Positions 1 to 4,529 of a DNA stretch of 4,529 bases are shown in pieces. Source of the DNA: a virus (lineage: Duplodnaviria > Heunggongvirae > Uroviricota > Caudoviricetes). Both the position numbers and the translations under genes were made by a program. The stretch spans positions 1 through 4,529 of IMG/VR virus record IMGVR_UViG_3300029060_000152; one strand, written 5' to 3'. Each line of letters opens with the position of its first letter. Positions within the stretch are counted from its first letter, which is position 1. Under the pieces are notes generated by a model, which had not been told where the DNA came from, did not search any database, and saw nothing but the letters and a program-made list of their open reading frames with translations.

Positions 1-10
1 AAAGACTCAT
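1..10 (-). CDS. 5' end (3 codons, M-S-L) of the next leftward gene, continuing beyond the window; product unknown (by position, a second replication gene such as a helicase loader)
   Basis: Minus strand reads GGGGG-TAA-TC-ATG-AGT-CTT: ATG at 10..8 lies 2 nt after the TAA stop (15..13) of the upstream replication gene, a typical coupled junction. Only 10 nt are visible, so identity is inferred from operon position. Confidence 0.3.
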
Positions 11-12
11 GA

Positions 13-954
13 TTACCCCCTGAATCCTGCCGGGATCTGGCTGTAGTCCACGTTGTCGTAACTGGCTTTGAAGTACGGGTCTTCGCGTTTTTCGGTGTAC
101 GTGCTTACGGACGGCGATAAGCGCAGGGAAAGCTCATCCCATTTTTCCCGCAGCTTCGACGGGCTGAGCACGTTACGGCACCAGAACGGATCGCGGCTGA
201 CGCGGCTGTACATCTCGCAGATTTGTTTGTGAGTACGACCATCCTGCACACACATCAGGCGAATTTCGTTTGCCCAGGCTGTCCAGTTCGGTTCTTTGGG
301 ACGAACCACCTCGCCGTCACATTCGGCAGCCTGCTCGTACAGGGCGATGATTTTTTTCCAGAGCCACTGTGCGCAGGTCAAATCATCCTGCGTCCCCCAC
401 TGGCGCTTTTTAGGGCTGAATACAACCGCATCAGGATGGCGAGTTAAAAAATCCTGTTCAGCCGTCTGCGTGTCCGGTTGCGAAGCGTCCGGACGAGAAG
501 GTTTTTTATCTGACGGATCATGTTTTGATTTTACTGACGGATCCCCGCCAGATTCTGACGGGTGAAAACCCGCTTTTTTGCCAGATTTCGACGCATCAAA
601 TTTTGACGGGTCAGATTTTGATGCGTCAGATTTTGACGGGTCAGAATCTGACAGTTGAGAAAATGCCGCAGCCTGAAGCTTCGCAACGTTAAGCTGATAA
701 ACATTCGACGCATTGCGGTTACCCTGGCGACGCGCCTTACGCGTTAACCAGCCTTCTGCTTCCAGCCGTGCGATAGCCGTTCTGACTGTACTCATCCCCG
801 CGCCAATCTGGCGGGCAATGGTTTCAATCGATGGCCAGCACACACCTTCGTCATTACTGAAATCAGCCAGGCGGGCCATAATTGCCACGCTGGATAATTT
901 CATGCCTGACGCTGCGCAACCATCCCATACATAGCCGGTTAATTTAGTGCTCAT
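13..954 (-). CDS. Phage replication initiation protein (replisome organizer, O-like role): N-terminal winged-HTH domain, low-complexity Ser/Asp/Pro/Lys linker, C-terminal domain of unknown fold
   Basis: 313-aa ORF with ATG at 954..952 preceded by GAGG (minus strand AGAGGTCGGTCATG). The N-terminal 90 aa (…LSSVAIMARLADFSNDEGVCWPSIETIARQIGAGMSTVRTAIARLEAEGWL…) matches from memory the HTH_36-type domain of phage and plasmid replication initiators. The linker (SDSDPSKSDASKSDPSKFDASKS) is encoded by the iteron array. Last gene of the cro-CII operon, as O is in lambda. Confidence 0.85.
   Translation of the reverse strand: MSTKLTGYVWDGCAASGMKLSSVAIMARLADFSNDEGVCWPSIETIARQIGAGMSTVRTAIARLEAEGWLTRKARRQGNRNASNVYQLNVAKLQAAAFSQLSDSDPSKSDASKSDPSKFDASKSGKKAGFHPSESGGDPSVKSKHDPSDKKPSRPDASQPDTQTAEQDFLTRHPDAVVFSPKKRQWGTQDDLTCAQWLWKKIIALYEQAAECDGEVVRPKEPNWTAWANEIRLMCVQDGRTHKQICEMYSRVSRDPFWCRNVLSPSKLREKWDELSLRLSPSVSTYTEKREDPYFKASYDNVDYSQIPAGFRG
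507..656. repeat. Iteron-like direct repeat array (putative phage origin of replication) inside the replication-initiator gene
   Basis: Five head-to-tail 15-bp units on the + strand: 582..596 cagatttcgacgcat, 597..611 caaattttgacgggt, 612..626 cagattttgatgcgt, 627..641 cagattttgacgggt, 642..656 cagaatctgacagtt. A sixth copy at 549..563 (cagattctgacgggt) and further CTGACGG cores at 509..515 and 534..540. Same layout as lambda ori within the O linker-coding region. Confidence 0.6.
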
Positions 955-1302
955 GACCGACCTCTATTTCCCTGAATTTACGACGAAACTGTTCGAGCGG
1001 ACTGAAGCACTCATGCTCATAGCCTTCGCGGAGGTAGATAACCCGTTGTGTTTCCGGTTCCCAACGAATGACTCTGACGGGCACTCCGTAGTGATCTTTG
1101 AACCAGCGGTTAACTTGTCGCAAAGGACTGTCTCCTTCTGCCGGTTGAAATCCCCCACAGCCCACTCTGCAAAGCTGTGGGTTACAATTTCCCTGTCACC
1201 TGGTACATTCACTGCATAGCAATATTCCACCTTCGCTTTTCCACCCGGTACAGGAAGCGCAATCAGTTGCGAGCGACGGTAGTGTGTTGTTAAACTGTTC
1301 AT
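944..1302 (-). CDS. Small hypothetical protein with a reading-frame switch: N-terminal part in frame A (from ATG 1302), C-terminal part in frame B (ending TAA 946..944); frameshift, indel or assembly error suspected
   Basis: Frame A starts at ATG 1302..1300, overlapping the upstream TGA (ATGA junction), and is protein-like through …HSFAEWAVG, then degrades into an S/N/K-rich tail to 964. Frame B is open only from 1195, has no SD before its first possible start (GTG 1165), yet reads protein-like (…[47 protein letters not shown]…) and ends 11 nt inside the replication gene start. Both frames are open across 964..1195; a G5 run (1152..1156 as ccccc on +) is a plausible indel site. Confidence 0.45.
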
Positions 1303-1862
1303 GCGTTAGTTTCTCCACAACCAGAAGCAATCGACGCCACGACGCCCGGAGCTGCACACTCGCGGGCGTCATTACTTTCTGAAATGCAAAAAATTTTGTA
1401 GACAAGTGCTGCATGCTCCTGCAGCTTCGAAATTGAGAGATACAGCTCGTCGTTAATTGCTGTCTTCTCATGCGGTTCCACTACANNNNNNNNNNNNNNN
1501 NNNNNTGAACGAATCTGTTTTGAATAACTGCCGATCTGTTCAATGACTTCCAGCAGACGCTGGTTAATATCGGCGTTGTCCACATCCTCGACGTCAGGAA
1601 GAGACACAAAGACGCCATTTGCAGACTGCGCCACAGCATCAGCAATGAAATGAGTGCCACCAGCACGCTGTAAAACCATTGCCCATCCCAGCGGGAAAAT
1701 CTGATCGCCATCTGCACGAAGGCGGTTGAATAAAGCGTTTTCTGTTACATCGAGCCAGTCAGCCGCTTCAGCGTAACCACCCGGCAACGCCGCGATAGTT
1801 TTTCTGACAGCTTTCACGTACCACTCAGGTTGTTTTTCCACTTTCCAATGATGCTTACCCAC
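1299..1862 (-). CDS. CII-like phage regulatory protein (resembles the phage 186 CII / Phage_CP76 family from memory); interrupted by an assembly gap, so length and frame continuity are unverified
   Basis: GTG start at 1862..1860 sits 6 nt downstream of a strong SD AGGAGG (+ strand cctcct 1869..1874) and overlaps the cro-like stop (minus strand GTGGGTAA). Second gene of the rightward-type operon, where cII sits in lambdoid phages. The N-terminal segment (…[25 protein letters not shown]…FIADAVAQ…) recalls 186 CII-type proteins. The 20-N gap falls inside the ORF, and 20 is not a multiple of 3, so the apparent in-frame continuity is arbitrary. Confidence 0.55.
1486..1505. other. Assembly gap (run of 20 N)
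   Basis: Twenty consecutive n characters at 1486..1505; the true size of the missing sequence is unknown. Confidence 0.98.
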
Positions 1863-2115
1863 GGCTTACCTCCTGTTCCTGTGGTTTAAACCCATTCTGG
1901 TTTTGGCTAGATTGAAAACGTGCCGGATAAAGAATCTGCATTTCGCTGATTTCACCCTTAAAAAAATTGGCCAGACGTTCTGCAAGATCGATAGATGGAA
2001 TTTGTTCCAGTCTTTCAATACGACTCAGCGTCGCTGGATTGACCTGAACGCCCGCAGCAACATGCTGCAAAGTAAATCCGTGCGCCTTACGCACATTCCG
2101 TAATGGTGATTGCAT
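1855..2115 (-). CDS. cro: Cro-like HTH (XRE-family) transcriptional regulator, first gene of the operon divergent from the repressor
   Basis: 86-aa ORF with ATG at 2115..2113, preceded by SD GGAGG (+ strand cctcc 2120..2124). HTH signature …GFTLQHVAAGVQVNPATLSRIERLEQIPSIDLAERLANFF…. Sits divergent from the CI-like gene across a 97-bp operator-rich spacer. The symbol is a functional analogy, not a sequence identity claim. Confidence 0.8.
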   Translation of the reverse strand: MQSPLRNVRKAHGFTLQHVAAGVQVNPATLSRIERLEQIPSIDLAERLANFFKGEISEMQILYPARFQSSQNQNGFKPQEQEVSRG

Positions 2116-2129
2116 ATAACCTCCACATA

Positions 2130-2212
2130 TTGCGTGATGAGCATATTATTTCACGCAAATATTTTGCGCAAGTTGATTTGCTTAACGCGCAATAAAGAAA
2201 TGTAATAAACGC
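2130..2212. promoter_or_regulatory. OR-like operator and divergent promoter region between the cro-like and cI-like genes
   Basis: TTGCG/CGCAA half-sites: TTGCGTGA 2130..2137 is the inverted repeat of TCACGCAA 2151..2158; palindrome TTGCGCAA 2164..2171; 15-bp site TTGCTTAACGCGCAA 2178..2192. Leftward promoter candidate (minus strand): -35 TTGCGC (+ 2171..2166), 17-bp spacer, -10 TAATAT (+ 2148..2143). Rightward promoter candidate: -35 TTGCTT 2178..2183, 17-bp spacer, -10 TGTAAT 2201..2206, placing the transcript start at or next to the cI ATG (2213). Confidence 0.65.
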
Positions 2213-2905
2213 ATGAACATAGGAAATCGAGTCAGACAACTTCGCCAGGCGAAGAACATGAAAATCGCCGATCTCGCTGAAGCAATAGGAGTGGATGCGG
2301 CGAATATCTCGCGCCTCGAAACAGGTAAGCAGAAACAATTCACTGAACAAGCCCTGAGTAATATTGCCAGGAGCTTAGATGTTGATATTGCTGATCTCTT
2401 TACCTCAGACCTCAAAAGTAATACTGTATGTAAAAACAGTATTAGTGAGGATGTTGCGCAGGTGAAGGATGTATTCCGTATTGAAATGCTGGATGTCAGT
2501 GCCAGTGCGGGAAATGGCCTTATCCAGGGCGGTGATGTCATTGATGTGATTCATGCCATTGAATACAGAACTGATAATGCTGTATCGATGTTTGGTGGAC
2601 GACCAGCAAATCACATTAAAGTTATCAACGTTCGTGGGGACAGTATGTGTCCAACCATTGAGCCAGGAGATCTCATCTTCGTTGATATCAGTATCAATCA
2701 GTTTGATGGGGATGGTATATATGTATTTGGTTTTGATGATAAAATTTACGTCAAACGACTGCAAATGATACCTGATAAACTGCTGGTAATTTCTGATAAT
2801 CAGATTTACCGCGAATGGGGAATTACCAGCGAAAACGAACACCGGTTTATGGTCTTTGGAAAGGTCTTAATCAGTCAGTCACAGACCCTTAAGCGACACA
2901 ATTAA
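2213..2905 (+). CDS. cI: CI-like prophage repressor: N-terminal HTH_XRE DNA-binding domain plus C-terminal LexA/S24-family autopeptidase domain (SOS-inducible)
   Basis: 230-aa ORF. HTH: …VRQLRQAKNMKIADLAEAIGVDAANISRLETGK…. S24 domain with Ser in VRGDSMCPTIEPGDLIFV (Ser144) and Lys in YVKRL (Lys181), the same 37-residue Ser-Lys spacing as LexA, and a candidate Ala-Gly cleavage site at Ala99-Gly100 (DVSASAGNG). No SD upstream of the ATG. Followed by an intrinsic terminator. Confidence 0.9.
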   Translation: MNIGNRVRQLRQAKNMKIADLAEAIGVDAANISRLETGKQKQFTEQALSNIARSLDVDIADLFTSDLKSNTVCKNSISEDVAQVKDVFRIEMLDVSASAGNGLIQGGDVIDVIHAIEYRTDNAVSMFGGRPANHIKVINVRGDSMCPTIEPGDLIFVDISINQFDGDGIYVFGFDDKIYVKRLQMIPDKLLVISDNQIYREWGITSENEHRFMVFGKVLISQSQTLKRHN

Positions 2906-2926
2906 CCCCCTACCTCAACATCAATT

Positions 2927-2950
2927 AGCCACCAGAAGGTGGCTTTTCAT
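2927..2950 (+). terminator. Rho-independent terminator downstream of the cI-like gene
   Basis: Perfect 7-bp stem AGCCACC (2927..2933) / GGTGGCT (2938..2944) with 4-nt loop AGAA, followed by TTTT (2944..2947, the first T shared with the stem), 22 nt after the cI stop codon. Confidence 0.65.
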
Positions 2951-2960
2951 TACCCACCAA

Positions 2961-3014
2961 ATTGCTTATCTCGCAATAAAACACTTGCATAATGCGCAAC
3001 TTCATTTTATCTTT
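2961..3014 (+). promoter_or_regulatory. OL-like operator pair with a candidate rightward early promoter
   Basis: Two 15-bp sites matching the OR copy: TTGCTTATCTCGCAA 2962..2976 and TTGCATAATGCGCAA 2985..2999 (both TTGC-N6-CGCAA). Promoter hexamers are ambiguous: CATAAT at 2988..2993 is a possible -10, or -35 TTGCAT 2986..2991 with -10 TATCTT 3008..3013 (16-bp spacer). Position matches OL/PL in lambdoid phages. Confidence 0.55.
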
Positions 3015-3423
3015 CTCTCCAGACCTACAAACAAGGTACTAACAAAATTTGGTTGTAACACGGCGTATGGCACATGCGTCGTTAGCGGTCTGGGGACGTT
3101 AAAGGGGACAATCCACTCCTTGCTCGGGCAAACAAACCAGGTAGCCGGAATGTGCAAGTCAATGAGGATGCTGATAAGACGCCTAACCAGCGTGGCGATC
3201 CGGTTTGACGCCTGGGAAGAGACCAGGGTGCAACGATGAGGGCATTTATGGAACCGCGACAAAGTGTGGTGCCGTAACTGGCTAAGTGCTCTCAGCGTTG
3301 TGGTAATCCGCGAAATGGCGCGGCGGTAAGTATGGCGGGGTTACTCTTTCCCCGTTGAGGACACCGGATTGTCAGGTTGACCATACGCCTGAGTGACAAC
3401 CCCACCACAACAGCCACTGCTTT

Positions 3424-3470
3424 GGCGGTACCAGTTTGTACACTTGCTTCCGGCTGGTACCGCTCTTTTT
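3424..3470 (+). terminator. Strong hairpin plus T-tract: intrinsic terminator or antitermination-controlled element in the early-left leader; the tail resembles a boxA sequence
   Basis: Perfect 10-bp stem GCGGTACCAG (3425..3434) / CTGGTACCGC (3454..3463) with a 19-nt loop, followed by TCTTTTT (3464..3470). The sequence CGCTCTTTTTACAA (3461..3474) resembles boxA (GCTCTTTAACAA type) as recalled from memory. Confidence 0.5.
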
Positions 3471-3474
3471 ACAA

Positions 3475-3557
3475 AACAGAGAAGAGCATCACCGGACGAC
3501 GGGCTCATAACCCAATCCATCCGGGCGGCAGTCACCGCAGGTGTTCTTCTCTGTTTT
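3475..3557. other. Long imperfect inverted repeat (about 16-bp stem in RNA) of unknown function in the leader of the rightward genes
   Basis: AACAGAGAAGA (3475..3485) is the exact reverse complement of TCTTCTCTGTT (3545..3555). Pairing extends through 3486..3490 / 3540..3544 with two G-U wobbles, enclosing about 49 nt. Flanked by T-rich sequence on both sides. Confidence 0.4.
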
Positions 3558-3607
3558 GTGGAGAAACCAACCGACCTTGCAGGGTCGATATGATGAGGAG
3601 CAGCAAA

Positions 3608-3970
3608 ATGGCTAGCGAACGCAGTACTGATGTGCAGGCATTTATCGGGGAGCTGGACGGCGGCGTATTTGAAACCAAAATCGGCGCTGTTCTCAGTGAA
3701 GTCGCTTCCGGTGTGATGAACACGAAAACCAAAGGTAAGGTCTCGCTCAACCTGGAAATCGAACCATTTGATGAGAACCGTGTGAAAATCAAACACAAAC
3801 TCTCATATGTTCGCCCGACTAACCGCGGGAAAATTTCCGAAGAAGACACCACCGAAACGCCGATGTATGTCAATCGCGGTGGTCGCCTGACTATTCTGCA
3901 GGAAGACCAGGGACAATTACTGACTCTTGCCGGTGAACCTGACGGAAAACTCCGCGCAGCAGGTCATTAA
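3608..3970 (+). CDS. Hypothetical phage early protein, about 120 aa, function unknown (possibly YfdP-like of CPS-53-type prophages; unverified memory)
   Basis: ATG at 3608 is preceded by SD AGGAG (3596..3600) with a 7-nt spacer; in-frame alternative starts are ATG 3590 and 3593. Stop TAA 3968..3970. The ORF-track start at 3377 is a TTG and gives an implausible N-terminal extension. Confidence 0.7.
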   Translation: MASERSTDVQAFIGELDGGVFETKIGAVLSEVASGVMNTKTKGKVSLNLEIEPFDENRVKIKHKLSYVRPTNRGKISEEDTTETPMYVNRGGRLTILQEDQGQLLTLAGEPDGKLRAAGH

Positions 3971-4035
3971 TATCGTTCTTAATTAACCGATTATTTATCT
4001 CATCACTGAATATCTTTATATAGTGAGGACTTATT

Positions 4036-4529
4036 ATGTCTCAGAACTTAGACGCAACCGCAATTAATCAAATCCATGCCCTTATTTCTGCTCAGGGTGT
4101 TAATGAAATTATCAGTAAGATTGGTGCCGATGCTGTGGCATTGCCTGAGAATTTCCGCATTCATGATCTGGAGAAATTTAATTTAAATCGCTTCCGTTTC
4201 CGTGGTGCGCTTTCCACTGCCAGCATCGATGACTTTACCCGTTATTCTAAAGATCTTGCAGATGAAGGCACCCGCTGCTTTATCGATGCCGATAATATGC
4301 GTGCCGTCAGTGTGATTAACCTGGGTACTATTGATGAACCAGGTCACGCAGATAACACCGCCACTCTCAAACTGAAAAAGACAGCACCGTTCTCTGCTCT
4401 GTTGTCTGTTAATGGCGAGCGTAACTCCCAGAAGTCACTGGCAGAATGGATTGAAGACTGGGCCGACTACCTTGTGGGCTTTGATGCTAATGGTGACGCT
4501 ATTCAGGCAACAAAAGCGGCTGCGGCAGT
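4036..4529 (+). CDS. Conserved phage protein of unknown function, 3'-truncated by the window end (resembles the DUF2303 / YfdQ-like family from memory)
   Basis: ATG at 4036 preceded by SD GAGGA (4025..4029) with a 6-nt spacer. Open to the window end (164 codons: [98 protein letters not shown]…). Absent from the ORF track only because it has no stop in the window. Confidence 0.8.

Follow-up and report, generated by a model that had tools for sequence, protein, structure and literature searches.

A probable replication origin embedded in the linker-coding part of a lambdoid prophage initiator gene

In lambda and the Stx phages, the replication origin lies within the gene of the initiator itself: four or six iterons occupy the middle of gene O together with an AT-rich tract (PMC7466680). 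In-gene origins have also been inferred for P22 and phage L, and gene 18 of L contains six imprecise copies of an 11-bp sequence, TGTCCAACGGA (PMC8022706). The principle of the in-gene iteron origin is therefore textbook knowledge. Here, we describe a repeat segment inside the initiator gene of a caudoviricete (IMG/VR record IMGVR_UViG_3300029060_000152); the window is the whole stretch of DNA that was analyzed, 4,529 nucleotides at positions 1 to 4,529 of that record. It is close to certain that the segment is a cis-acting DNA element under selection. We put at roughly 80% the probability that window positions 472-660 are the phage replication origin, bound by the N-terminal domain of the initiator and located within the part of its own gene that encodes the linker.

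Lambda ori codes for about amino acids 117-160 of O, with iterons at O nucleotides 349-433. The locus described here shares its layout. The repeats lie in the middle of the initiator gene and encode a linker between a DNA-binding N-terminal domain and a C-terminal domain; they are dyad-symmetric and are followed on the promoter-distal side by an A-rich/AT-rich tract (L082 1122-1166 in lambda); and the two C-terminal domains are homologous (BLASTP E 7e-26). The likeness to the lambda origin asserted in a preliminary description of this DNA thus holds for layout, C-terminal domain and the order of repeats and AT-rich DNA. As in lambda and the Stx phages P27 and 933W, which have 6-iteron origins inside the initiator gene, repeat number varies between relatives, adding or removing protein residues. 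Other features set the locus apart from lambda. The N-terminal domain belongs to HTH_36 (PF13730), whereas lambda O is a Phage_rep_O protein (PF04492, 5.7e-36). An 11-bp core recurs on an exact 15-bp period, in contrast to lambda iterons of about 18-19 bp spaced 20, 24 and 23 bp. No P gene lies downstream, and the AT-rich part contains two invariant GATC sites. Because the N-domain family, the size and spacing of the iterons and the absence of P all differ, we would class the element as an in-gene iteron origin of lambdoid phages rather than a strict lambda-family ori.

P22 and L offer a second comparison, in which distantly related or unrelated lambdoid initiators carry short in-gene repeats of their own, and the L unit is also 11 bp long. 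The repeat sequence and the initiator family are different, however, and a DnaB-type helicase (gene 12) is present in P22 and L; the phage described here has no helicase or loader. The iteron plasmids (pSC101, F, R6K, P1 oriR) resemble this locus in having a winged-helix initiator and direct repeats in phase, next to an AT-rich unwinding element; in P1 oriR there are, in addition, short repeats that contain GATC, and their methylation matters. Unlike the repeats described here, those of the plasmids are found outside rep and measure about 17-22 bp.

The initiator is named 'helix-turn-helix domain-containing protein', or 'primosomal protein' in phages SfIV and Kati. Its 313 residues match HTH_36 (Pfam, 4e-11 at amino acids 23-70) and phrog_391, 'replication initiation O-like' (8e-136). 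An identical protein (100%) is encoded by Escherichia phage Kati, and identity to gp41 of Shigella phage SfIV (complete genome) is 99.4%. A Pfam search of the window protein gave no Rep_3-type domain and no PF04492 match. The gene is divided as follows:

13..954, minus strand: replication initiator gene, 313 amino acids (open reading frame; Pfam HTH_36 and phrog_391 matches)
661..954, minus strand: N-terminal winged-helix DNA-binding domain, amino acids 1-98 (HTH_36 at amino acids 23-70; AlphaFold model)
about 472..660, no strand assigned: linker-coding segment under nucleotide-level purifying selection, amino acids 99-161; proposed origin (codon alignment)
121..471, minus strand: lambda-O-like C-terminal domain, amino acids 162-278 (BLASTP and tblastn to lambda O; AlphaFold model)

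We built an AlphaFold model of the initiator from 30 homologues. The N-terminal domain contains helices (residues 43-50 and 54-66) and, at 70-73/85-88, a wing formed by a beta-hairpin. A fold search returned generic MarR/ArsR/Fur-type winged-helix proteins as its closest solved folds, and a sequence search found no close sequence homologue of the initiator among solved structures. Residues 102-161 have a predicted local distance difference test score (pLDDT) below 50, lack secondary structure and are predicted to be disordered. The repeats therefore fall in the linker-coding part of an HTH-type initiator gene, as initially proposed. Residues 162-278 are modeled confidently as helical (pLDDT about 85-95). 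Amino acids 70-277 of the initiator align with O 78-270 at 31% identity (BLASTP, E 7e-26), and amino acids 166-277 are 39% identical to lambda/434 O (tblastn); identity to phi80 gp15 is 35% (tblastn).

The repeat region encodes amino acids 99-150, including DSDPSKSDASKSDPSKFDASKS. Tandem Repeats Finder assigns 582-645 a period of 15 (4.3 copies, 81% matches, score 86), and this stretch can also be read with a period of 30 (88% matches, score 100). The sites are listed in the order in which the initiator gene is read; none is assigned to a strand.

582..656: five in-register 15-bp units, starting at 582, 597, 612, 627 and 642 (repeat search)
641..651: 11-bp quasi-palindromic core TCAGAATCTGA, with perfect arms TCAGA/TCTGA
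626..636: 11-bp iteron core TCAGATTTTGA, exact
611..621: 11-bp iteron core TCAGATTTTGA, exact
596..606: 11-bp iteron core TCAAATTTTGA, exact
581..591: degenerate 11-bp core CCAGATTTCGA, 2 mismatches
548..558: dispersed 11-bp core CCAGATTCTGA, 1 mismatch, 33 bp from the array and overlapping the CTGACGG at 555
534..543: GATC-bearing 10-mer CTGACGGATC (coding strand GATCCGTCAG), first of a near-invariant pair
510..519: GATC-bearing 10-mer CTGACGGATC (coding strand GATCCGTCAG), second of the pair, 24 bp from the first
498..537: tract of lowest stability, rich in A+T (coding strand A-rich); candidate DNA-unwinding element (nearest-neighbor stability)

These sites bear out the five phased 15-bp repeats of the preliminary description and its further, dispersed copies of CTGACGG, which are exact at 510, 534 and 555; TTGACGG occurs inside the array at 603 and 633. 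CTGACGG has 6 matches in the window against 0.41 +/- 0.62 expected, a number reached by none of 200 dinucleotide shuffles. As the core of the repeats, CTGACGG stands for the dispersed copies only. In the tandem units it takes in three of four variable bases (CGG), and the conserved core there is the 11-mer TCARAWTYTGA, with 5 matches at no more than 1 mismatch against 0.38 expected. In all, four exact and three degenerate quasi-palindromes of this form are present. The sites at 518-651 (amino acids 102-146) lie inside the initiator reading frame, between the winged-helix domain and the C-terminal domain.

Selection on DNA and selection on peptide should leave different marks on synonymous sites. 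One scan of GTDB genomes yielded 80 loci, and the 73 with a distinct full N-domain were aligned by codon. These homologues come from Enterobacterales (Escherichia, Shigella, Citrobacter, Enterobacter, Kosakonia, Pantoea, Erwinia, Yersinia, Rahnella, Providencia, Proteus, Morganella, Edwardsiella and others). Conservation in the three parts of the gene was:

N-domain, amino acids 2-97: third positions 0.53; codon entropy at conserved residues 0.82; amino acids 0.83
Linker, amino acids 99-161: third positions 0.78; codon entropy at conserved residues 0.19; amino acids 0.68
Beyond amino acid 162: third positions 0.51; codon entropy not informative (2 codons); amino acids 0.61

The linker differs from the N-domain in both third positions (p = 1.7e-13) and codon entropy (p = 4e-9; Mann-Whitney). 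As judged from the N-domain values, its synonymous sites are near saturation. Third positions are better conserved than position 1 or 2 in 32/63 linker codons and 6/96 N-domain codons, and third-position identity to the window is higher in the linker than in the N-domain for all 72 of the 72 other homologues. Several linker codons are fixed: S112 (TCA 64/64), S117 (TCA 69/70), F130 (TTT 63/63) and S143 (TCA 60/60). The inversion of codon-position conservation in the linker is unusually clean. Because third positions are conserved in the linker while its amino acids are less conserved, we conclude that the DNA of about 472-660 is the selected feature. The preliminary description had proposed that the DNA repeat rather than the peptide is selected, a claim the 73 homologues uphold, and had placed the repeats at 507-656; the repeats are there, but the constrained segment is wider. 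Recent spread of the segment does not explain the pattern, since invariant third positions stand beside freely varying bases in the 4-bp spacer. As a control for the codon test, a scan of viral contigs with lambda O returned only copies 99-100% identical, among which synonymous conservation is unmeasurable; lambda was used only for comparisons of layout, stability and fold z-score.

The homologues also define what is conserved within the repeats. A logo of 289 stacked tandem units of subfamily 1 reads TCA-R-A-W-T-C-T-G-A, followed by 4 poorly conserved bases. Read in the opposite direction, the array becomes a series of TGA-N4-TCA sites with variable N4, found in essentially every homologue, and the half-sites TGA and TCA are kept across genera. 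At least four copies of the 11-mer at no more than 1 mismatch occur in 61/73 homologues. At the dispersed core (548..558), S133 is TCA, with third-position conservation of 1.00, and S135 is TCT in 62/64. SfIV, whose complete genome measures 39.8 kb, has exact copies of the 11-mer and of the GATCCRTCAG pair nowhere but in the initiator gene, and these motifs form no other cluster. A hairpin resembling a terminator, CGGGTGAAAACCCG and then TTTTTT, separates the tandem units from the dispersed copies, at 559-572 on the plus strand, antisense to the initiator; its stem is only weakly kept in the homologue consensus.

Each 15-bp unit encodes one copy of a five-residue peptide repeat, S-D-x-S-K. The coding frame of TGA-N4-TCA forces [..T][GAx][xxx][TCA], or X-(D/E)-x-S, and for this reason the peptides vary (SDPSK, SDASK, IDPSN, VEGLT, SERSE) while the DNA frame is fixed. 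The repeat period equals five codons exactly, so the S-D-x-S-K repeat of the disordered linker is dictated by the DNA sites.

Downstream of the array in the gene direction, and so promoter-distal to it, lies the AT-rich tract. Its 30-mer at 503-532 is 73% AT, with a nearest-neighbor dG of -34.6 against a gene mean of -42.6 +/- 2.8, the lowest-stability window of the gene. Of the homologues, 49 have a 24-bp spacing between the two GATC-bearing 10-mers here, and 8 have an 18-bp spacing. Codons at the first are D138 GAT 73/73, P139 CCG 68/73, S140 TCA 64/64 and V141 GTA 67/70; codons at the second are D146 GAT 66/66 and P147 CCA/CCG 72/73, with a third-position conservation of 1.00 at S148. Their GATC sites, at 516-519 and 540-543, show no or almost no variation among the 73 homologues. 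Together with a phage-encoded Dam-family methyltransferase, this suggests that methylation control of initiation through these two sites is possible. We considered a DnaA box in the GATC repeats and rejected it, as the match to TTATCCACA, judged by eye, is 5/9 bases.

These features suggest how the origin might fire. The N-domain (amino acids 1-98), the presumed reader of the iterons, would bind, probably as a dimer, an array of 11-bp TCARAWTYTGA quasi-palindromes: four or five sites every 15 bp and two or three more 30-33 bp further on. The resulting nucleoprotein complex would destabilize the adjoining A+T-rich tract at 498-537 with its two near-invariant GATC 10-mers. The lambda-O-like C-terminal domain would then bring in the host helicase machinery.

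Among the homologues, tandem units number from 0 to about 9 five-residue units; P0007 has 10 residues fewer and P0009 10 more. A second N-domain subfamily (MSSKLHGLVWEG...) differs in the predicted recognition helix and wing, and its unit is YCAA-NNR-TTGA plus (C/G)4; a third type (L018) carries TGAACGTTCA. As a different N-domain subfamily comes with a different unit, the site appears to change along with its reader. The N-domain and the linker stay together as a single inherited module, joined either to a lambda-O-type or to a Phg_2220_C C-terminal domain, and the junction with the C-terminal domain falls directly after the conserved DNA.

Several points weigh against an origin read by the N-domain. 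Some variants (P0034, P0029 and P0068) have no tandem unit and keep just the two GATC-bearing repeats; therefore, the array may be accessory, or those prophages may be defective. Both subfamilies share the GATCCGTCAG GATC repeats though their tandem units differ, so one class of repeat may have a reader other than the N-domain. The 15-bp spacing puts neighboring sites on nearly opposite faces of the helix, in contrast to the 20-24 bp of lambda, and the AT-rich tract is modest at 73% AT compared to 83% in lambda. The initiator is not followed by any gene of the P, DnaC or DnaB type, and no P-type loader is encoded. Finally, the literature searched gave no published binding, replication or origin mapping for this initiator family.

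The strongest competing explanation is that the segment is a cis-acting site for regulation rather than initiation, such as an autoregulatory roadblock or operator or a 'handcuffing' copy-number site, with the unwinding site elsewhere. Nucleotide constraint tells us that the DNA is selected but not for what, and plasmid iterons serve both initiation and control. The variants without tandem units are also compatible with such a role. We nevertheless consider it unlikely: SfIV has no second motif cluster elsewhere in its genome, the AT-rich stability minimum directly adjoins the array, position and polarity are those of lambda ori, and the N-domain and linker travel as one module.

A second alternative replaces the double-stranded, protein-binding array with a structured mRNA or single-stranded DNA fold-back, whose role would be in the control of translation, stability or priming. 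The region does fold far better than its shuffles (z = -7.29), and homologue linkers have a median z of -4.0 compared to -0.65 for N-domains. However, the experimentally defined lambda ori has a similar self-complementarity (z = -7.49); the score therefore follows from palindromic iterons and does not discriminate. The arms of the 11-mer are 1-5 nt apart, too short for folding alone, and the half-sites are conserved as sequence and not just as complementarity. Long helices predicted in the window use spacer bases (such as CGCA/TGCG) that are not kept in homologues, and the repeat region has no Rfam match at gathering thresholds. On this evidence, a folded nucleic acid is a distinctly improbable basis for the conservation.

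Alternatively, the repeats could be a slippage-prone, low-complexity coding sequence selected as a flexible peptide linker, its resemblance to iterons being coincidental. A five-residue unit with a copy number of 0 to about 9 is what simple coding repeats show, and the linker is predicted to be disordered. Against this, synonymous sites are far more conserved than in the flanking domains while amino acids are less so. Moreover, the two serine positions of the unit keep fixed but different codons across genera (TCT 53/57 and TCA 64/64), and the peptide differs by subfamily (SDxSK, DPSNI/DPSTV, SERSE) with the TGA-N4-TCA frame kept. There is very little chance that a peptide linker alone accounts for these observations. 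An overlapping gene as the cause of the synonymous constraint is excluded for practical purposes: window reading frames of 55 amino acids (525..692, plus strand) and 60 amino acids (531..713, minus strand) do overlap the region, but the five alternative frames are open over the linker in 0, 0, 0, 5 and 24 of the 73 homologues, none consistently.

The complete SfIV genome (L163) contains no helicase loader, helicase or other recognizable replication gene. The loader is absent although the C-terminal domain of the initiator is homologous to the P-binding C-terminal domain of lambda O. Helicase may be recruited directly through this lambda-O-type domain, without a phage loader. YfdR is reported to bind DnaA and, overexpressed with its neighbors, to inhibit chromosomal initiation (PMC4776307). 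The prophage carries yfdP and yfdQ (DUF2303) at 3608-3970 and 4036-4529, and yfdR is present in a related locus (L001, 17446-17982). Such genes may matter to a phage whose own replication set is limited to an initiator, and helicase recruitment might involve the YfdR of this prophage type.

Downstream of the initiator (window positions 1-12; L001 10869-12010), a PerC-like yfdN is followed by the phage Dam methyltransferase (PF05869); both neighbors are also present in L024 and L012. Adenine methylation of the two GATC sites by this Dam, encoded two genes downstream, may gate firing. It is a speculative and, in our view, doubtful proposition that these traits together make up a distinct, very widespread type of origin, in which a five-codon register dictates the linker, firing is gated by Dam at GATC and helicase is recruited through the C-terminal domain without a loader.

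Gene content and profile matches identify the window as the region of a lambdoid E. coli prophage that governs immunity and replication. The genes flanking the initiator on its promoter side are:

944-1123, minus strand: small DUF4222 gene, overlapping the start-codon region of the initiator gene
1299..1862, minus strand: CII-like gene
1855..2115, minus strand: cro-like gene
2213..2905, plus strand: cI/LexA-like repressor gene

The DUF4222 gene is found beside the initiator in most annotated relatives, including those with a different C-terminal domain. The CII-like gene contains 20 N (masked or unknown bases) at 1486-1505, and the repressor gene contains a 9-bp tandem repeat, TGATGTCAT, in 3.3 copies at 2533-2562 (Tandem Repeats Finder). 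Operator-like TTGCG...CGCAA inverted repeats lie at 2128-2194, between the divergent cro-like and cI/LexA-like genes, and at 2962-3007, just downstream of the repressor gene; together they look like an OR/OL pair. A terminator-like hairpin is located at 2927-2944.

The initiator is common. A match to it (its first kilobase) is found in 3357/5426 complete E. coli genomes, with further matches in Shigella, Salmonella, Klebsiella, Pantoea, Providencia and others. PLSDB matches are mostly large records or phage-sized circles. One of them, NZ_CP148542.1 (L164), is a 16-kb circular 'plasmid' record that corresponds to a lambdoid prophage fragment from immunity through lysis genes, and it may represent either an assembly artefact or an element like lambda-dv. 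At 1675-2634 it carries a subfamily-2 initiator gene that is frameshifted inside the linker, followed by a gene for a DnaC-like ATP-binding protein. The frameshift makes this record unusable as an example of a plasmid with this initiator as its sole replicon.

The origin of this very widespread initiator family appears to have been unmapped so far. Placing it at a defined 190-bp segment would provide a target for studying or blocking the replication of serotype-converting Shigella phages such as SfIV. It would also explain why a conserved, odd peptide repeat is found in a disordered linker, and would be a clean case in which a DNA site shapes the protein that the sequence encodes. The contrast in codon entropy that exposed the segment could be used generally to find in-gene origins in other phage initiators.

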